IMG/VR virus record: IMGVR_UViG_3300027785_000036
Span: 1-50,000 of that record
From: a virus
Taxonomy: Duplodnaviria; Caudoviricetes
DNA: 50,000 bases
Reading direction: 5' to 3' (one strand)
The translations under genes and the position numbers were made by a program. Below, one piece after another: positions 22,995 through 50,000 of this stretch (position 1 is the stretch's first letter; every line of letters begins with the position of its first letter). Under the pieces are notes generated by a model. It made no database searches, had not been told where the DNA came from, and saw only the letters and a list, made by a program, of their open reading frames with translations.

Positions 22995-24149
22995 TCAAAT
23001 CATCTTATCCAACTTATTATAGAGATTTAAGCCACTTAAATTTATCTTGTAACTTAGTGGTATTAATGCCGCATAGTTTAAATCTTCTGGTTTAAAAGAT
23101 TCACCAGGATTTTCTCCTTTCGACATTTCATATATGAATCTAAATTTTTCATTTTTCATCATTCGTTTGCAACTATTTTCTCCACGGAGTTTTGCAAAGT
23201 CCCAAAACGGTGTATCAAATTTAGAACCAGAATAATAGTGTAACATTATCATAGCTTCAACTTCTTCCAAAAGTTCCAAATATGTTGCGTTGTAATTCTC
23301 AATAGAATTTTCACCTGCCCATATATCATGGGCACCACGATTAATAAAATCCATGACCATGATTGATGTTGCTTCCATCGGTTCTAAGAAGAAAGAAGAA
23401 TTGCCATTATATACAACTCTTTCTGTAAAGTTTTCTTTTCTGAAATAATTTTTGAAGTTGAATGTATTTGTAACATCACTAGGTATTAAATGTAATTCAG
23501 AAAATACGTTCTTAACATCTTCTTTGACTTCTTCTAATGTATTGATATTGTGGTTATACATGTAACCAATAGAACAACGATTTTTTAATGGTATACCAAA
23601 AATCCATCCATATGGTCTAGCCAATGCTAATGTATTATTGAAAGTTGGATAATCCCAATAACATTGTGTTACATGAACAGCATTGACTGAAATGTAATCA
23701 GACATATGGAATTCTTCATAATTGTCTGGTTTACCAGAACAATCCATAATATAATCTGAATCAATGTCTTGGTGTTTTACATTCTTATCAATAATTTTGA
23801 TATCATTTTTTAGTTTATCTAAAATGAATTTCTGTAATTTACCTGCATTAAAATGATAACCAACAACAGGAGGATAAAATGGATGTATAAAATCTGAACC
23901 GCCCCAATTCCTCTTGTCTATGCCATGTTTAATCGTACCATCTACCTTTACTAGGTCATCAAAAGTAAAATGTAAATTGTGCCATAACACATTAGGCAAC
24001 GATGGTGTTGAACCTTCACCCACTGGTTGTGGACTAATATTCGAATCATAATATAATTCAATATCACAATCTTTTCTCCACCTATTAAAATGTGCAGCTG
24101 CAAGAACACCAGCTGTGCCTGCGCCAATGATTGATATTTTCTTACGCAT
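22995..24149 (-). CDS. flavin-dependent (tryptophan-halogenase-like) enzyme
   Basis: GAGTAG FAD motif, VGEGS, TIKHGI (candidate catalytic Lys), IMDCSG, GWIFGIP, FFLEPMEATSI. Confidence 0.85.
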   Translation of the reverse strand: MRKKISIIGAGTAGVLAAAHFNRWRKDCDIELYYDSNISPQPVGEGSTPSLPNVLWHNLHFTFDDLVKVDGTIKHGIDKRNWGGSDFIHPFYPPVVGYHFNAGKLQKFILDKLKNDIKIIDKNVKHQDIDSDYIMDCSGKPDNYEEFHMSDYISVNAVHVTQCYWDYPTFNNTLALARPYGWIFGIPLKNRCSIGYMYNHNINTLEEVKEDVKNVFSELHLIPSDVTNTFNFKNYFRKENFTERVVYNGNSSFFLEPMEATSIMVMDFINRGAHDIWAGENSIENYNATYLELLEEVEAMIMLHYYSGSKFDTPFWDFAKLRGENSCKRMMKNEKFRFIYEMSKGENPGESFKPEDLNYAALIPLSYKINLSGLNLYNKLDKMI

Positions 24150-25867: not shown

Positions 25868-26404
25868 TTAGAAACCTACTGTGTATGCTACAGCAACAAC
25901 TTTCTGATTGCTGTCGCCTTGAACACGGTCATACTTCACTGCAATAGCATCGTTCTTATTCAAAGCATAAGACACAGCATAACGCATCGTATGTGTTTGG
26001 TCGTTGTTTGCAGTGTCAACTGCTGAACGCCAGCGATACCCAACCTTAGCAGTCAAACCAGCACCGATTGGTGTAGTAAAACCTGGTTCTACTGAGTAGT
26101 AGTTAAAGTCGGCTGTATTGCTATATTTTTGACCAATAGCAGTACGAGCATACAATCCAACTGGACCTGATACTGTTGCGCCTGCTTCTAAGCGTGTGCT
26201 CAAAGCATTTGTGCCTTCAGTTTGTGCATTTGCAAAAGATACATCACCGGCAAATTTGCCGAAATCTTTCTTAACACCCAAAACATATTGTTGCTGTGCA
26301 GCTGCACCAGCGTTGTTGATACGTTGACCTTCAACAGTAACAGTATCACCAGCATATGCCGATACACTTAATGCAATCAAAGTTGCAATTGCTAATTTCT
26401 TCAT
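25868..26404 (-). CDS. outer-membrane beta-barrel protein (porin-like)
   Basis: Sec signal MKKLAIATLIALSVSAYA, alternating amphipathic strands, C-terminal AYTVGF BAM signature. Confidence 0.8.
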   Translation of the reverse strand: MKKLAIATLIALSVSAYAGDTVTVEGQRINNAGAAAQQQYVLGVKKDFGKFAGDVSFANAQTEGTNALSTRLEAGATVSGPVGLYARTAIGQKYSNTADFNYYSVEPGFTTPIGAGLTAKVGYRWRSAVDTANNDQTHTMRYAVSYALNKNDAIAVKYDRVQGDSNQKVVAVAYTVGF

Positions 26405-39817: not shown

Positions 39818-40386
39818 TTTTTAACTCCATACATCATCATCATTGCATCCAATACACAATCGTCAATTGGATTGTGTTTAGTGATATGATTTCTTGAATC
39901 GAAACCTGGATAATCTACATCAACATAACCATTGGTTGTATTGTATAGAAAATCCACAGCAGTTCTTACATCACGCCATCTGGCATATGGCCAAATTGGT
40001 TCTAATTCTAATTGTTCTTCAATGTCATCCATTACCAATTGGTCAAGATTACCTCGAGCCCATACCCAACACTTGGTATCATTTTTTGATGCAGCCCACT
40101 TACGCATAGATTCGTAACCATCAACAAAGGAACAATCTACCTTACTTGGTAAGAATGATGCAACTCGAACATTGCGGCATTGTTTATTCCACCAATCCAT
40201 AGTTGATTGGTTCATCTCACGACCATATTCTTTTACCTGTTCAATCACACTAAACTTGGCAAAGAAAACATCTTCACGCAGTTCTTGTGGTGATGGTTTG
40301 GTATCAGGATCAAAATGAATAGCAGCCATCGATAGAATCACCGAATTGGATCTCTTACCTAGTGTTTCAACATCAAATATAAACAT
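39814..40386 (-). CDS. DEDDh 3'-5' exonuclease (DexA-like)
   Basis: FDVETLG, STMDWW, VWARG..D, RDVRT, HNPIDDC. Confidence 0.85.
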   Translation of the reverse strand: MFIFDVETLGKRSNSVILSMAAIHFDPDTKPSPQELREDVFFAKFSVIEQVKEYGREMNQSTMDWWNKQCRNVRVASFLPSKVDCSFVDGYESMRKWAASKNDTKCWVWARGNLDQLVMDDIEEQLELEPIWPYARWRDVRTAVDFLYNTTNGYVDVDYPGFDSRNHITKHNPIDDCVLDAMMMMYGVKK

Positions 40387-44288: not shown

Positions 44289-44325
44289 ATAGTTTCCAGT
44301 TGCAAAATGTTTCTCAATATAGACA

Positions 44326-44354
44326 ATTATACACTATTTTGTCTATAATGGCAA
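44326..44354 (-). promoter_or_regulatory. sigma70 early promoter
   Basis: TTGCCA-N17-TATAAT. Confidence 0.8.
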
Positions 44355-44369
44355 TATACATCAAAAGTA

Positions 44370-44549
44370 TTACTTTGCCGCAAAGCGTTCCATAACAGTT
44401 GGCGTATACAAACGATTGGTCAATAATGTATATTGGCGTGATTGTGTCACTTTGCCAATATTGATTTCTGCCATTTTCTGTAAACCAAAATTACTGAACT
44501 TTTCGCCTGACAATATATCAAGCATATACATCCAATTCAAATCTTTCAT
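44370..44549 (-). CDS. 59-aa hypothetical protein
   Basis: Manual translation MKDLNWMYMLDILSGEKF...; AAGGA SD. Confidence 0.55.
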   Translation of the reverse strand: MKDLNWMYMLDILSGEKFSNFGLQKMAEINIGKVTQSRQYTLLTNRLYTPTVMERFAAK

Positions 44550-44636
44550 ACATTTCCTTTAAGTTTTTGTAATGCCTGTGCTGCCAAATATTCACTAATC
44601 TTTGCTTCCCAAAGAGTTTTCATATAATCTCCAAAA

Positions 44637-44849
44637 TTAAACAATACTCAGTTGAATATTGTATGTGTGTTGAACCATTTTATGGTCATAATATTTTACA
44701 GTTGTGCTAATACCATCCGATTTTCCCATTAAATAATGAGCATAGAATAAGGCATCATTCTGTAACATAAAATCACCAACTCTTTTCTTTTTAATGTCCG
44801 CTCTAGTTGTATAGAAACTGACACGATTTACAATCGCACGAATCTTCAT
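44637..44849 (-). CDS. hypothetical protein
   Basis: ATGA coupling. Confidence 0.65.
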   Translation of the reverse strand: MKIRAIVNRVSFYTTRADIKKKRVGDFMLQNDALFYAHYLMGKSDGISTTVKYYDHKMVQHTYNIQLSIV

Positions 44850-45064
44850 TCTTCAACTCCAAAATGTTTTAAAATATAACTACCAGAATCATTGAATTGA
44901 TGTTGGTTGATTGTTGCAATAATAGCACATTCTTGAATAATCAACTTAGCGAATTTCTCAGGATCCAAGTGCTCGTTATAGGTTAGAATTTCTTCGCCTG
45001 ATACATCACACACTTCCGTCCAACCACCTGCACGGTTGAATAATTCATTTACAATTTTATTCAT
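44846..45064 (-). CDS. KFAELIV family paralog 5
   Basis: MNKIVNELFNRAGG..EKFAKLIIQEC..KHFGVEE. Confidence 0.75.
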   Translation of the reverse strand: MNKIVNELFNRAGGWTEVCDVSGEEILTYNEHLDPEKFAKLIIQECAIIATINQHQFNDSGSYILKHFGVEE

Positions 45065-45258
45065 GAATAATAATCCAATTCATCCAATGCTGCATCAATA
45101 GCAGAATCAGCCGTGCTCAAGAGCGAGGCAATTTCCGCATTAGTCTTTAATGGCGAAACCTGTAAACCATTTGTCATAGGCGTATTCGCCCAATGATATA
45201 CATCAGCAAGCAACGCCTGTGCTTGTTGTAATCTATCAACCAACTCCGAATTTGTCAT
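45061..45258 (-). CDS. hypothetical protein
   Basis: Operon packing. Confidence 0.65.
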   Translation of the reverse strand: MTNSELVDRLQQAQALLADVYHWANTPMTNGLQVSPLKTNAEIASLLSTADSAIDAALDELDYYS

Positions 45259-45259
45259 A

Positions 45260-45490
45260 TTAATCCAATAAAGTCATATATTCAGCAGGGAAATACCTAC
45301 GAAACCAATCTAAACCTTTTTGCATACGCTTATAATCACCAACTATTTGGCAACCCATAATTGAATCGTATACAGCAACCGCTTCAGGCGTCAAGGTACA
45401 AGATTCACCAGAAAATGGATTACTTACCTTGACAGGTTCAGAATCCAGAATCATACAATCAAACGGCAACTTAATTTTCTTCATAATCAA
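45260..45490 (-). CDS. conserved hypothetical protein
   Basis: NPFSGESCTLTPEAVAVYD..GLDWFRRYFPAEYMTLLD. Confidence 0.75.
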   Translation of the reverse strand: MIMKKIKLPFDCMILDSEPVKVSNPFSGESCTLTPEAVAVYDSIMGCQIVGDYKRMQKGLDWFRRYFPAEYMTLLD

Positions 45491-45783
45491 TCCTTGTAAA
45501 TAGCAAAACTTGTAGCATCTTCACGCAGGCAGGTTGTTTGCCTACTATTTGATGAGCGATAATTGCGGTGCGCACGAGGACCACGATACCTCAACTTTAC
45601 CTTAACATCAATGCTTTTGAAATAACTCAATACTTCATCACGCAACGAAGCAGGCACACCATGAAACCATGAGTGTCTACCATATGATTGATACTTATAG
45701 ATTTTCAACCATGTCAACAATTCTAAATTAACAGTCTGGGTCATAATCCATCCATTCTGTATATTCATCAGGTTGACCGTCAT
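45487..45783 (-). CDS. hypothetical basic protein (true start probably ~45720)
   Basis: RYRGPR motif; start uncertain. Confidence 0.55.
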   Translation of the reverse strand: MTVNLMNIQNGWIMTQTVNLELLTWLKIYKYQSYGRHSWFHGVPASLRDEVLSYFKSIDVKVKLRYRGPRAHRNYRSSNSRQTTCLREDATSFAIYKD

Positions 45784-45976
45784 AGTCTATCTCAGAATTC
45801 CATGAACCATTGATTTTCATAAAAACATCAATAATCGTCAATTTAGCGGACGGGAGCCAACCACGCTCGAGCATTGAAATTGCTTCTTCAGCATCTTCAG
45901 CCAGATATTCTTCTGTATGCTGTTCACCGTGTGGGTCAAGATATTGAATCAAATACAGGCGGTCATCATTATACAT
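45728..45976 (-). CDS. hypothetical acidic protein
   Basis: C-terminal DGQPDEYTEWMDYDPDC; start reassigned. Confidence 0.65.
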   Translation of the reverse strand: MYNDDRLYLIQYLDPHGEQHTEEYLAEDAEEAISMLERGWLPSAKLTIIDVFMKINGSWNSEIDYDGQPDEYTEWMDYDPDC

Positions 45977-46181
45977 TGTAAAATTCATCCTTGTAACATA
46001 ATGCATCATACACTACCTCACGCACGGCAGTATCCATTGCTTCCTCGTAACCTTCACGATTACTCAATTCTTGCAACTCACGATACACATCTAACCAAGT
46101 CAAATTGTGTACCTGAGCATTTTGTATCAACAAGCGAATGGCATTATTGCCATGCTCTGTAAACATACCATAATCAAGCAT
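45969..46181 (-). CDS. hypothetical protein
   Basis: YGMFTEHGN..EAMDTAVREVVY; start reassigned to MLDYG. Confidence 0.7.
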   Translation of the reverse strand: MLDYGMFTEHGNNAIRLLIQNAQVHNLTWLDVYRELQELSNREGYEEAMDTAVREVVYDALCYKDEFYNV

Positions 46182-46380
46182 TTGCTTTACTTTCAAAATC
46201 AATTTCCATCTGAATTTCTTCAGCGTCCCATTGGTCAATGACCGTTTTAATCAATTCCATTGCGTAGTCATGGTCAATACGATATTGAGCAAACAAATGC
46301 ACAGCAATCGCTTCGTAGGTGTAGAAACCATTGCTCAACATATCTTCAATAACCGATCGAACTTCTTTCATCTTTCCCAT
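46174..46380 (-). CDS. hypothetical acidic protein
   Basis: MGKMKE; AAGGA SD; first gene after its promoter. Confidence 0.75.
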   Translation of the reverse strand: MGKMKEVRSVIEDMLSNGFYTYEAIAVHLFAQYRIDHDYAMELIKTVIDQWDAEEIQMEIDFESKANA

Positions 46381-46411
46381 ATCTTTTCCTTTTGTTTGTT
46401 TGTAAGACTCA

Positions 46412-46481
46412 ATTATACCAGATTTTACTCAAAGTGGCAACCTAACACGATAGTATTCACATTTTTAACTGGAATACTATC
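46412..46481 (-). promoter_or_regulatory. sigma70 early promoter plus palindromic element
   Basis: TTGCCA-N17-TATAAT; GATAGTATTC-N13-GAATACTATC at 46449-46481. Confidence 0.8.
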
Positions 46482-46489
46482 TAATTACA

Positions 46490-47101
46490 TTACTCGTTTG
46501 TAGCACTCAGACCGCCGTCCAAGTCGATTTCTTCGTTTTCCTCTTCCCATTCTGCTATATTAGCAGAGATATTGAACATTTCATCCAAATCACCAGGAAT
46601 CGTATCTGCAACTTCCTCAGAGGTCATATCTGAGAAATTATACTCATTATCAAAACCATCAGAATATGTACCAGCATAACCCATGCCAGGTTCGTAATAA
46701 TACGCATTAACTGTAAAACCTAATTCTTCCAGTTTTTGATAGGCACCAATAGGCGGCGACCAAGCAGAATCAACAGAAAATGTCATTTTCTTACCTGATT
46801 CGTCAACCGATGCTTCTGTACCATCACCACCTAAGTCCCATTTTGTGCCCCACTCACTTGTGCAAAACGAGTACCAATCAGCATAACCGTGTTTGGCGAT
46901 ATTTTGCTCAACTTGCAACTCATGTGCTACCTGCTCAGGCGAACCTTTTTCACCTACATTACCTGCATCAATTTGCAAGTCAGCAGGCACGGGAATGAAT
47001 TCCTTCAATAACTCACCTTTACCTAATGCTTCTGCAGCACGGGAAATCATTACTGGGTCGTTGTGTTCCAGCTCCACATAGTTATTGCACCAATTTGGCA
47101 T
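46490..47101 (-). CDS. DUF1281/YubB ferredoxin-like domain protein
   Basis: MPNWCNN, WY.FC..EWGTKWD, SAWSPP, YYEPGMGYAG. Confidence 0.85.
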   Translation of the reverse strand: MPNWCNNYVELEHNDPVMISRAAEALGKGELLKEFIPVPADLQIDAGNVGEKGSPEQVAHELQVEQNIAKHGYADWYSFCTSEWGTKWDLGGDGTEASVDESGKKMTFSVDSAWSPPIGAYQKLEELGFTVNAYYYEPGMGYAGTYSDGFDNEYNFSDMTSEEVADTIPGDLDEMFNISANIAEWEEENEEIDLDGGLSATNE

Positions 47102-47176
47102 ACTTTACCTTTCGTTTGTGAAAAAAAATCAACCTCACAAGATAGCATTCAGGTTAGTAAATACTATCTAATTAGA

Positions 47177-47347
47177 CTAATCTACCTCAGATAAGAAACC
47201 TTGTAATATCTCGGCAGGCACAAATCGGAGCAATTCTTCAATCGCTGCCAAATCACCTGCCTTGACATCCGACACAACTTGAAACAAAGCAGATTGAACC
47301 AAACCTTCAAATTCATTACCACGCTCAAATACACTCAATTTATCCAT
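47177..47347 (-). CDS. 56-aa acidic hypothetical protein
   Basis: Manual translation MDKLSVF..DVKAGDLAAIEELL..LQGFLSEVD. Confidence 0.6.
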   Translation of the reverse strand: MDKLSVFERGNEFEGLVQSALFQVVSDVKAGDLAAIEELLRFVPAEILQGFLSEVD

Positions 47348-47356
47348 ATTTTTACC

Positions 47357-47515
47357 TTAGTTTGGTTGTGATTCGTTGACAAATTCAACAATATCCATCA
47401 AAATCTCGTTTTTATCTTCATCAGATAATTCCGTATCTTGTATAGAATTAACCAAATCGATAGCAAAACCCATTGCCCGTGAACGGGTCTCAAAATACAA
47501 TACATTATTACCCAT
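47357..47515 (-). CDS. 52-aa acidic hypothetical protein
   Basis: Manual translation MGNNVLYFETRSRAMGFAIDL... Confidence 0.55.
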   Translation of the reverse strand: MGNNVLYFETRSRAMGFAIDLVNSIQDTELSDEDKNEILMDIVEFVNESQPN

Positions 47516-47769
47516 TAAATATTCTCCAATTCATTTATACGATCCTTTAAATCTTGCACCTCGTCAAAATCGCCATCTTCACCAAGATAATCTAACTCAC
47601 TTTTCAAATCTTCGATAAGTGCATCAGCAGTATCATTGCAAAGCATACGATATGCGGTGGCGTCTAACTCACGCAAAATAGCAGAGCGAGAAAATACAGA
47701 ACCTGCAATTTCTACAGTTCCATCCATATCGAGCAATTCGTCCACCATTTCTTCTATCATATCACGCAT
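47515..47769 (-). CDS. highly acidic early protein
   Basis: About 25 D/E versus 7 K/R in 84 aa (hand count); GAGG SD. Confidence 0.75.
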   Translation of the reverse strand: MRDMIEEMVDELLDMDGTVEIAGSVFSRSAILRELDATAYRMLCNDTADALIEDLKSELDYLGEDGDFDEVQDLKDRINELENI

Positions 47770-47797
47770 TTTACTTTACCTCTCACTTAAAAAAACA

Positions 47798-47873
47798 ATT
47801 ATACCAGACTTTACCTAATTTGGCAACCTAATGCTTTAGTTCTCGACTTACCTGCTTGAGAACTAAAGTATTA
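47798..47873 (-). promoter_or_regulatory. sigma70 early promoter plus 16-bp-arm inverted repeat
   Basis: TTGCCA-N17-TATAAT; TAATGCTTTAGTTCTC-N13-GAGAACTAAAGTATTA. Confidence 0.85.
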
Positions 47874-47904
47874 AGTCAGTTATTACTAACCTAATACCAA
47901 CCTA

Positions 47905-48093
47905 TTAGTCAAATTCGCTACATTGAACATAATACATTGCTTCGTCATACATACAAAATACACCTTCTACCTCAAGACCGTAACCTAAAGCAGTAATATA
48001 CTTGCCTAAACTTACTACCTCAGCAGTATATCCATCAGAATAAACCCGCTCTTCCAACTCATTAAGAGATTTCATTAAGTCAATAGATAACAT
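47905..48093 (-). CDS. hypothetical acidic protein
   Basis: AAGGAG SD. Confidence 0.65.
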   Translation of the reverse strand: MLSIDLMKSLNELEERVYSDGYTAEVVSLGKYITALGYGLEVEGVFCMYDEAMYYVQCSEFD

Positions 48094-48103
48094 TTTTTAC
48101 TCC

Positions 48104-48265
48104 TTAAAAATGACCTGTAATTTCATCAGGCACAACCCCATAGATTTTATTATTGATAGAACTAACCAATTCAATATTTTCATCAGTATCATCATAAAGT
48201 TCTACTATATTCAATTGGTCATAAATTAGTTCTAATTCTGACTCGCTGAATACTAAAGTATACAT
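48104..48265 (-). CDS. 53-aa acidic hypothetical protein
   Basis: Manual translation MYTLVFSESELELIYDQLNIVELYDDTDENIEL... Confidence 0.55.
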   Translation of the reverse strand: MYTLVFSESELELIYDQLNIVELYDDTDENIELVSSINNKIYGVVPDEITGHF

Positions 48266-48305
48266 TTTTTCTTTTTCCAACTTTTACCTCACTCTTAAAA
48301 CAACC

Positions 48306-48371
48306 ATTATACACAAAATCCTAGAATTGTCAATATAAGTCAATAGTTCTCACAATTTTACCCGTAAGACT
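48306..48371 (-). promoter_or_regulatory. sigma70 early promoter with upstream box
   Basis: TTGACA-N16-TATAAT (extended -10); AGTTCTC-N13-TAAGACT. Confidence 0.75.
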
Positions 48372-48374
48372 ATA

Positions 48375-48701
48375 TTACTCATATTCTAACTCATTTACAT
48401 CAAAAGTATTCAAAAACTCAGATACGATAGAAATGTAGTTCTTTTTATCTACTTCAATATCATATGTAAGTGGAAAGTCTACATTTTTAAAGAAATGAGT
48501 ATTATCTTCTTCATTATACACTTCAAATTGAATACTATTGTTTTCAGTATAACAAGGGGTACAATATAGTATTACATCACTATCAGATTGTAAGTATAAA
48601 GTATTAACAAACACTTCAGAGTATAATGTATACTTTTGTATTACAATTTGACTTTCAGATAAACTTACTACTAAATCATTCACATATTGATAGTTAATCA
48701 T
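48375..48701 (-). CDS. hypothetical acidic protein
   Basis: 108 aa; has its own promoter. Confidence 0.7.
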   Translation of the reverse strand: MINYQYVNDLVVSLSESQIVIQKYTLYSEVFVNTLYLQSDSDVILYCTPCYTENNSIQFEVYNEEDNTHFFKNVDFPLTYDIEVDKKNYISIVSEFLNTFDVNELEYE

Positions 48702-48736
48702 ATTGTATTACTTTCTTCTGTTCTAATTAAAAGACA

Positions 48737-48764
48737 ATTATACATGAAACCAAAGAAATGGCAA
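48737..48764 (-). promoter_or_regulatory. sigma70 early promoter
   Basis: TTGCCA-N16-TATAAT. Confidence 0.75.
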
Positions 48765-48822
48765 GTAACCAAATAGTATTACAGCAGACCGGTCAAGTAT
48801 AATCCGAATTGCAAAAAAATGC

Positions 48823-48877
48823 TGTGGATAACTCTGTGAGTATGCTGTGTATAAGGCTGTGGATAACTTGTGGATAA
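48823..48877. promoter_or_regulatory. array of co-oriented DnaA boxes
   Basis: TGTGGATAA at 48823, 48858 and 48869; TGTGTATAA at 48846; degenerate copy at 48835. Confidence 0.8.
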
Positions 48878-49106
48878 GTCGCACAACTTGTCGCCAGTAT
48901 AGTGTAGTACCAAAGTCTTAGTTTGTAGGTCAGATGCCGGATTACTTCCAAAGTATTCAAAACCACACAGGATGAAAACAAAATGACTCATTGTGGGTGA
49001 CCGAGAAACAAAAGTATTCATTGCCAGAGAGGGTTTAAACCTTTTGTTTTCGGATCAAATAATACGCAGGATCCGTGTGCACCCCAGTCGCTTTCGAATA
49101 GGTACC

Positions 49107-49212
49107 ATTATACAGGTTCCGCTCCGTTTGGCAATATAAGAAAAAAGTTCACACAATGCCTCCTGGAGAACTAAAGTTTACAGTTGCCAAAACCTGTGAA
49201 ATACCCTATAAT
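49107..49212. promoter_or_regulatory. divergent sigma70 promoter pair sharing one palindromic element
   Basis: Minus: TTGCCA(49134)-N16-TATAAT; plus: TTGCCA(49184)-N17-TATAAT; AGTTCAC-N13-GAGAACT centred between them. Confidence 0.8.
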
Positions 49213-49243
49213 TCATCCATACAAACAAACAAAGGGAAACAAA

Positions 49244-49393
49244 ATGACAAAAACCAAAAGCAAAAAAACCTTAGGTGCTCTGCTTCGCAAGCGCTTAGGG
49301 TTGAAACCAACTCTCGGTGAGCTTTTCAGAGCTCGCATGGGTACGCCGAAACCAACGCTTGGTGAGCTTTTCAGAGCACGCCTGAGCGCTTAA
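49244..49393 (+). CDS. 49-aa basic peptide with three TLGxLxRxR repeats
   Basis: Start reassigned to ATG 49244, after the promoter and the AAAGGG SD. Confidence 0.7.
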   Translation: MTKTKSKKTLGALLRKRLGLKPTLGELFRARMGTPKPTLGELFRARLSA

Positions 49394-49439
49394 GGTTGAC
49401 CAGTAACCGTAAAGGTTGCTGGAGAACTAAAGTACTAGG

Positions 49440-49468
49440 TTGCCAAAACGGCAAATATCGGTTATAAT
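49440..49468 (+). promoter_or_regulatory. sigma70 early promoter with upstream GAGAACT box
   Basis: TTGCCA-N17-TATAAT. Confidence 0.8.
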
Positions 49469-49503
49469 TATCTCTTACAAACAAACAAACAAAGGAAAAA
49501 AGT

Positions 49504-49839
49504 ATGTTTACATTCGCTTGTGCTTCTATTCAGGGTCTTACACTCAACCAAAAGCGTGAAACCCTCGCCGCTTTGAAAATATCTATTAAGCAAGATATCA
49601 CCGAGAGAAAATTTGCAAGAATGCTCAACGCTGAAGCGAAGCGCCATGCTGTTGTGACCAAGCGTGAGCAGGCAATTGCGAGAGCAGAAGCACGCCTTGC
49701 TAAATTGCTTGCTAAACAGGCAGCGCCAGTAGGCGTTAAGGCGCTCAAAGCAAACCGCAAACCGAGCAAGGTTGTGACTTATGGCGCAGAAGCGAATGAA
49801 ATCGCTGCTGCTATCATGGCGAAAAAGCAAAGCGCTTAA
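49504..49839 (+). CDS. Ala/Lys-rich basic coiled-coil protein
   Basis: Own promoter, AAGGA SD and terminator. Confidence 0.75.
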   Translation: MFTFACASIQGLTLNQKRETLAALKISIKQDITERKFARMLNAEAKRHAVVTKREQAIARAEARLAKLLAKQAAPVGVKALKANRKPSKVVTYGAEANEIAAAIMAKKQSA

Positions 49840-49847
49840 CGCATCCC

Positions 49848-49874
49848 CCGAGGCGAGCAACCCCTCGGTTTTTT
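49848..49874 (+). terminator. intrinsic terminator
   Basis: CCGAGG-N9-CCTCGG-TTTTTT. Confidence 0.7.
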
Positions 49875-49966
49875 AAAGGATAGCGTAAGCAGTTAAGCCG
49901 GAGGGATCGTATCCCCGAGGTGGCGGTTGCAAAATCACCGCCAACTTTTTTATATAAGGACATTTT

Positions 49967-50000
49967 ATGATTGCGAAAATTGAAGCGGTTCTGCTGACCG
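49967..50000 (+). CDS. start of a truncated ORF (MIAKIEAVLLT...)
   Basis: AAGGA SD followed by ATG. Confidence 0.45.
   Translation, partial: MIAKIEAVLLT

Follow-up and report, generated by a model that had tools for sequence, protein, structure and literature searches.

A phased array of predicted host DnaA boxes as an optional module in the early control cassette of a T4-like phage

In Bacillus subtilis, extra-origin clusters of DnaA boxes restrain the initiation of replication (PMC3245932). According to PMC2533591, stability of such clusters (DBCs) is associated with a score threshold of A > 0.3 and "probably four or more" boxes, and some of the clusters regulate neighbouring genes. Escherichia coli carries 307 consensus boxes and about 200 DnaA molecules per oriC, a mioC copy binds ~8 monomers, and plasmid-borne boxes raise the initiation mass, i.e., delay initiation (PMC5835720 and PMC4585315). 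The datA locus depends on an IHF site that is flanked by two essential boxes, and in case of DARS a correct orientation of the boxes is essential (PMC5835720).

In phages, the first-step-transfer region of T5-like genomes contains pairs of DnaA boxes 3 bp apart, for which Davison disfavours a role as origin (10.1101/866236). T5 boxes and software-predicted phage origins are also treated in PMC13250531, PMC11512268, and 10.1101/2024.12.16.628780, and further related literature is found in PMC13674477. T4 origins are situated near strand switches, oriE combines an early promoter with 12-nt repeats, oriF and oriG depend on an AT-rich unwinding element, and the review describing them has 0 mentions of DnaA (PMC3016281). 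A search of the open-access literature turned up neither an account of DnaA arrays in T4-like phages nor one of DnaA sinks in phages. Paired boxes have already been published for T5, and an earlier sequence-only reading of this DNA had pointed to DnaA-box-like repeats in the T5 injection-stop region.

The window, i.e., the whole stretch of 50,000 nucleotides analysed, encodes gp32, gp59, gp33, and baseplate genes, in agreement with the T4-like identity assigned earlier; the closest cultured gp32 matches are cyanophages (~55-61%). A tryptophan-halogenase-like gene (PHROG 2928) is located between gp32 and gp59 at 22995-24149. An outer-membrane beta-barrel protein is predicted at 25868-26404 (Atlas 0.96-0.99 to viral porin/OMP clusters), which implies a Gram-negative host. 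The 177-kb record of the complete relative G001 encodes gp43, gp41, gp61, the clamp loader, UvsX, and gp46/47. Due to the fact that a Bac_DnaA match is present in neither of the two genomes searched (G001 and G002), the sites can serve only a host protein. Searching GTDB genomes with a 28-nt pattern of the array gave 0 hits, and with the pattern of the adjacent conserved core three hits, of which two are chance and one is a near-identical phage variant (L478); its 3.3-kb contig was assigned to a Bacteroidia bin, probably by mis-binning, and gives at most a weak hint at the host.

A scan of the 50-kb window for TTATNCACA revealed minus-strand matches starting at 48823, 48846, 48858, and 48869, three of which read TTATCCACA and one TTATACACA. 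The fifth site at 48835 has two mismatches to the consensus and is thus outside the list of boxes with one mismatch (Table 1). Four consensus boxes and a degenerate one, all co-oriented with a 12/11/12/11-bp period, are therefore borne out by the starts. Comparing the box count with expectation gave a divided answer. The total for the window is ordinary (9 versus 5.5 +/- 2.0 in shuffles, with 7 of 100 shuffles reaching 9), but local clustering is far beyond chance: when 50-kb sequences were simulated with an order-3 Markov model, 0 of 150 had more than two co-oriented boxes within 55 bp, and for four boxes the expectation calculated analytically is ~1e-8 to 6e-8. A further TTATACACA at 48307 was rejected as a DnaA box, as it represents the -10 element of a promoter.

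Table 1. Features of the array and its surroundings (positions in the window)
Feature	Position	Strand	Basis
108-aa ORF downstream of PL1; left edge of the non-coding stretch	48375..48701	-	no PHROG match
PL1, predicted sigma70 promoter TTGCCA-16-TATAAT, reads away from the array	48737..48764	-	promoter prediction; conserved in relatives
DnaA box 1, perfect TTATCCACA	48823..48831	-	sequence match
Degenerate box, 2 mismatches, in register	48835..48843	-	in-register position kept in close relatives
DnaA box, TTATACACA	48846..48854	-	sequence match
DnaA box, perfect	48858..48866	-	sequence match
DnaA box, perfect; 11-bp tandem pair with the box at 48858	48869..48877	-	sequence match
Conserved core TCGC-N8-TCGC-N22-CTTAGT	48879..48924		single copy per genome
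Conserved 15-mer, anchor for the search of relatives; inverted in G008	48973..48987		conservation
PL2, predicted sigma70 promoter, -35 at 49134	49107..49134	-	promoter prediction
PR1, predicted rightward sigma70 promoter, true divergence point	49184..49212	+	promoter prediction
Basic early ORF of 49 aa containing an internal repeat of 15 codons; borders the non-coding stretch on the right	49244..49393	+	frame kept in variant L478
111-aa basic early ORF, query for fetching relatives	49504..49839	+	ORF call

The surrounding stretch is gene-free, as read before, with a length of ~540 bp (48702-49243) instead of ~480 bp; overlapping ORFs of 80 and 48 aa were rejected as shadow ORFs, since 1-bp indels cross both in relatives. 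A 2,340-nt contig from the independent DNA run X11, which is not flagged as a possible source of the record, aligns over 47742-50000, where it shows 11 differences and 2 gaps. Because this single contig spans the array, a chimeric assembly with host DNA, which had been named as a refutation, is ruled out. The array region is present in freshwater metagenome runs from many studies. Contamination of the IMG/VR arrays by host oriC was rejected as well: DnaA/DnaN families were found in 0 of 140 flanking ORFs, most of which lack any Pfam match.

The array had been placed between divergent promoters in a strand-switch region. Instead, it is situated between the two leftward promoters PL2 and PL1, with the boxes spanning 59-113 bp upstream of the edge of the PL1 -35 element at 48764, and the strand switch is a small local one ~300 bp off without a change of replichore. 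The plus-strand island covers only ~2 kb in G001, the rest of this genome being mostly on the minus strand. GC skew is negative on both sides of the site in G001, so that the expected switch is missing, and detrended skew extremes are located elsewhere in G001 and G002, although T4-type replication may leave no skew signal. The label "pre-early" for the flanking promoters was overstated, too. A family of early promoters near the consensus TTGCCA-16/17-TATAAT occurs on both strands at 44320-49468 with shared upstream blocks. Relatives look mosaic at such promoter blocks, which suggests recombination between promoter cassettes, and the motifs of the cassette occur in either orientation among relatives, which points to DNA sites. 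For the 111-aa ORF, an Atlas search returned no function.

The core is more widely kept in the phage group than the boxes (seen in L315, L324, L326, L336, L395, L409, and L411), and its spacing is strict (N22 in 30 of 120 hits, the next commonest spacing in 13); it might represent the actual origin or an operator. An AAAGTAYWC motif is repeated in both orientations in the cassette (48950 and 49011 in the window, and L303). Neither this motif nor the TCGC repeats matched any of the host-regulator consensus sequences considered. A predicted PL2 transcript would cross core and boxes. In RNA libraries, the array is represented by a single variant contig (X15) spanning 48792-48996, which may stem from either strand and may be DNA; libraries X16-X18 have no coverage of the array and are uninformative. 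A structured RNA transcribed from PL2 is not supported: the folding z-scores are -0.61 and +0.58, the consensus fold is weak (-6.7 kcal/mol, covariation term -0.14), and no Rfam family reached its gathering score on this transcript.

Anchor scans for relatives returned 5, 23, and 27 loci, and 21 of the last 27 were dropped as chance since they lack the cassette. One retrieval of 22 loci contained six with boxes and cassette and two that were too short upstream; a strict locus filter kept 2 of 120 loci and was then relaxed. After removal of duplicates and incomplete loci, 21 distinct arrays remained, the window's own included, in which boxes with at most one mismatch were compared. In 21 of 21 arrays, at least one pair of boxes with the same orientation is retained at a spacing of 11 or 12 bp, which answers the call for a conservation check in the affirmative. 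Among neighbour spacings, 29 of 50 are 11 or 12 bp and 7 more are 23 bp. The arrays contain one to four perfect boxes, six of the 21 having just two and one having a single one. Over all arrays, 68 boxes are oriented one way and 3 the other; in L154 the pair is inverted, and L165, with one flipped box, is the sole array of mixed orientation.

In six alignable arrays, 1 of 32 box-consensus columns is variable, whereas 26 of the 71 columns beside them vary (p=2e-4 by Fisher's test); neither column counts nor p are independent, as the arrays are related and mosaic and the anchor favours close kin. The X15 contig differs at 20 positions over 206 nt, 0 of them inside the four consensus boxes. The box nearest to the PL1 -35 edge is 42, 43, 51-53, or 57-59 bp away in 17 arrays. 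The array lies between two leftward promoters in all of the 17 arrays tested and also in G008 and G009, and the last box abuts the core in many arrays. Varying box number, promoter distance, and orientation fit binding as such instead of a fixed geometry. These comparisons lend good support to the view that selection maintains the boxes as sites for host DnaA, and DnaA very probably binds the array.

Ten near-complete relatives (gp32 68-86% identical) were compared. A tandem exact cluster occurs in five of them (G001, G002, G007, G008, and G009) and is absent in the other five (G003, G004, G005, G006, and G010), so that the boxes are optional and not essential across the group. The core is kept without boxes in G004 and G006, G003 has only a weak pair with one mismatch, and in case of G010 the cassette was not located; furthermore, 6 of 9 cassette-like loci are without TTAT-type arrays. 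A perfect 19-bp palindrome (9-1-9), putatively of the Fur type, replaces the distal boxes in L157, L160, and L189 (3 of 17 arrays), and G005 has an 18/19 match to it and no box pair. The background of Fur-type palindromes at <=3 mismatches is 0-1 per genome. A literature search for the exact palindrome string gave no match. A perfect or near-perfect 19-bp palindrome is also situated in the cassette of L307 at about 1469.

The Ishikawa score, whose formula was checked on two published table rows, is A=1.91 for the array, 1.40 and 1.11 for those of G001 and G002, and <=0.18 for the best off-array site. Although the score was derived for Bacillus, the array ranks above all eight stable Bacillus sites (0.36-1.64; PMC2533591). 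It resembles the DBCs of B. subtilis (PMC2533591) in being a dense intergenic cluster of 4-5 boxes with a score over the threshold of A > 0.3. The DBCs are chromosomal, self-regulating, and position-dependent, whereas the array is viral, and its effect on the host would depend on how many copies are present. With datA, mioC, and the dnaA promoter it shares closely spaced high-affinity boxes that could titrate DnaA at high copy. An exact IHF consensus was detected in 1 of 17 arrays, where it overlaps a box, and is absent from the window's array; hits with one mismatch occur in 15 of 17 arrays, mostly on boxes or outside the array. Without an IHF site between the boxes there is no basis for datA-type ATP hydrolysis, and the array resembles mioC-type titration only, not datA function.

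The core of DARS consists of two oppositely oriented boxes, whereas the boxes of the window are all co-oriented. An AT-rich unwinding element was not found beside the array (40-bp windows in the 15th-56th percentile of melting ease); AT content over and to the right of the array is 58-64% compared to ~64% for the window, and the sole easily melted DNA is located beyond PL1. A DnaA-trio run, searched for with an approximate pattern, occurs in 0 of 17 arrays. Lacking IHF site, unwinding element, and trios, the array is not a datA, DARS, or oriC, as judged from those of their defining features that can be read from sequence.

As in T5, the paired boxes belong to an early, non-coding part of a lytic phage genome, with 2-3-bp spacers in 21 of 21 arrays. 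T5 boxes, however, lie within inverted repeats at a fixed genome end and are tied to two-step injection, whereas the array is an optional, co-oriented run of 2-6 sites between promoters of a T4-type phage. None of the 25 longest of 258 listed inverted repeats surrounds it, and in G001 it is internal, at 76.4 kb of the 177-kb record, so that it would not lie in a terminal repeat. The array resembles T4 oriE in its 12-bp repeats, evenly spaced close to a strand switch, into which the predicted early promoter PL2 would fire, but the AT-rich unwinding element required by oriF and oriG was not found at the array.

We tentatively prefer, as a reading just short of probable, that the array is a titration sink for host DnaA which becomes effective only after phage amplification. 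Of the sink or datA mimic proposed by the sequence-only reading, the plain sink is retained and the mimic is given up, since an exact IHF site is absent here. The array would represent a docking site for host DnaA and an optional module of the early control cassette. Cooperative binding of DnaA is presumed, since in box density and affinity score the array is well above the stable in-vivo Bacillus sites. One incoming copy would hold ~5-8 monomers, a few percent of the pool, and with E. coli-like ~200 per origin the effect at phage entry would be small. After replication, 25-40 copies would hold approximately the whole pool; this arithmetic uses borrowed E. coli numbers, and the DnaA pool of the host may differ. 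Drained of DnaA, the host would re-initiate later and DnaA-repressed promoters would be relieved, which would leave more nucleotides to the phage. In some relatives, the Fur-type palindromes occupying this slot would then serve as another decoy of this sort.

Arrays of this type are not confined to T4-like phages. A blastn search with 3 kb around the array against 50,697 phage records revealed no homologous region, the best matches being short and mostly at the array itself. With the array alone as query, 69 phage records were found at E <= 1, including microviruses, T5, Lactococcus phage AM4, and the T7-like A7. All 8 perfect boxes of A7 (L430, NC_048180.1) are located within its repeated ends, 22-147 and 39903-40028, which contain nine boxes each (4 perfect and 5 with one mismatch). 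Microvirus L199 (PQ006258.1) has five perfect phased boxes at 701-755, right behind the Rep gene, and several further microviruses match the query. A triple-box pattern occurs in ~670 IMG/VR stretches (not species; estimated from 12 of 64 IMG/VR parts) compared to 9 in reversed and 37 in permuted controls, i.e., roughly 18-74x. Among 80 unrelated IMG/VR arrays (L001-L080), 9 are inside an ORF >=90 aa, and 10 flank terminase, 3 GP88, and 2 zincin-like (ArdC-type) genes. A near-consensus promoter is situated at most 400 bp away from 18 of the 80, versus 1.4% of shuffles, although large non-coding gaps and early promoters co-occur anyway. Several arrays of cultured phages are located at genome ends. 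As for plasmids, 4 of 72,556 records contain an array. What these replication modes would have in common is DnaA binding, not origin function, and this favours the sink.

Several points speak against a sink. Each genome has one short array, whereas expansion might be anticipated for an element dedicated to soaking up DnaA, and 7 of 21 arrays contain only one or two perfect boxes, under the "probably four or more" of Bacillus. The E. coli chromosome already has 307 boxes. Should this phage, like T4, degrade or silence the host chromosome early, a late sink would add little. Finally, the invariable place between two early promoters beside a fixed core is not needed by a pure sink, and the promoters close to 18 of the 80 IMG/VR arrays point the same way.

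This place, shared by all 17 arrays tested as well as G008 and G009, would be expected if DnaA bound between PL2 and PL1 tuned early transcription, either by blocking read-through from PL2 or by modulating PL1, and thereby coupled early genes to the replication state of the host; Fur would likewise couple them to iron. The presence of another host-regulator-type site in the slot (3 of 17 arrays, and the G005 cassette) agrees with such tuning, and precedents are given by CtrA sites controlling phage promoters (PMC9437464) and by those Bacillus clusters that regulate neighbours (PMC2533591). Nevertheless, the boxes never overlap a promoter, their distances to the -35 element (42-59 bp) do not keep one helical phase, the orientation flips, and the RNA-library contig X15 crosses the array, a weak point, as it may stem from either strand. 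Altogether, we regard promoter tuning, which includes the promoter sensor proposed by the sequence-only reading, as rather unlikely.

Less likely still is an oriE-like origin, with the PL2 transcript as primer, the 12-bp TCGC repeats as iteron-like elements, and DnaA as an optional helper as in iteron plasmid origins. The single-copy, strictly spaced core, which the last box abuts in many arrays, would suit such an origin, as would the early promoter and 12-nt repeats of T4 oriE (PMC3016281). It is at odds with the lack of an easily melted stretch beside the boxes or downstream of PL2, the absence of trios in 17 arrays and of a skew switch, the core without boxes in G004 and G006, and the 6 of 9 cassette-like loci without TTAT-type arrays. 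Moreover, the phage has its own helicase loader, and the arrays in T7-like ends and microviruses would be left unexplained. The DnaA-assisted origin proposed earlier is weakened by the missing unwinding element, trios, and skew switch, by the replisome that G001 encodes itself, and by the five of ten relatives without a cluster.

It is improbable that DnaA tethers or positions the phage DNA, in line with the membrane anchor considered by Davison for T5 DNA (10.1101/866236), or that the boxes are weakly selected passengers of a recombining promoter cassette: 10 of 80 IMG/VR arrays adjoin terminase genes, several cultured-phage arrays are at genome ends, and the occurrence of the module is uneven, with only 5 of the 10 near-complete genomes compared containing it, but T4-type genomes are circularly permuted (PMC3016281) and thus have no fixed first-entering end, and the conservation of box columns relative to their neighbours together with a pair rebuilt in inverted form argues against neutrality. 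A restriction-site decoy was rejected, as none of three genomes examined shows an enrichment of palindromic hexamers.

Replication of T4-type phages is generally regarded as independent of DnaA. Nevertheless, this T4-like group keeps, rebuilds, and swaps DnaA sites. If the arrays titrate DnaA, host shut-off would be encodable in DNA sites alone, and the function of the T5 boxes would become testable in cultured phages, e.g., T7-like coliphages and Lactococcus phage AM4. It is tempting to speculate, doubtful as this generalization still is, that lytic phages of many unrelated families carry short non-coding arrays of sites for host regulators, which would act as decoys that need no protein and amplify themselves, and that the T4-like phages provide a swappable slot for either DnaA boxes or a Fur box. 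If true, the DnaA boxes would stall host re-initiation and the Fur box would open iron uptake, with a strength that rises with phage copy number.
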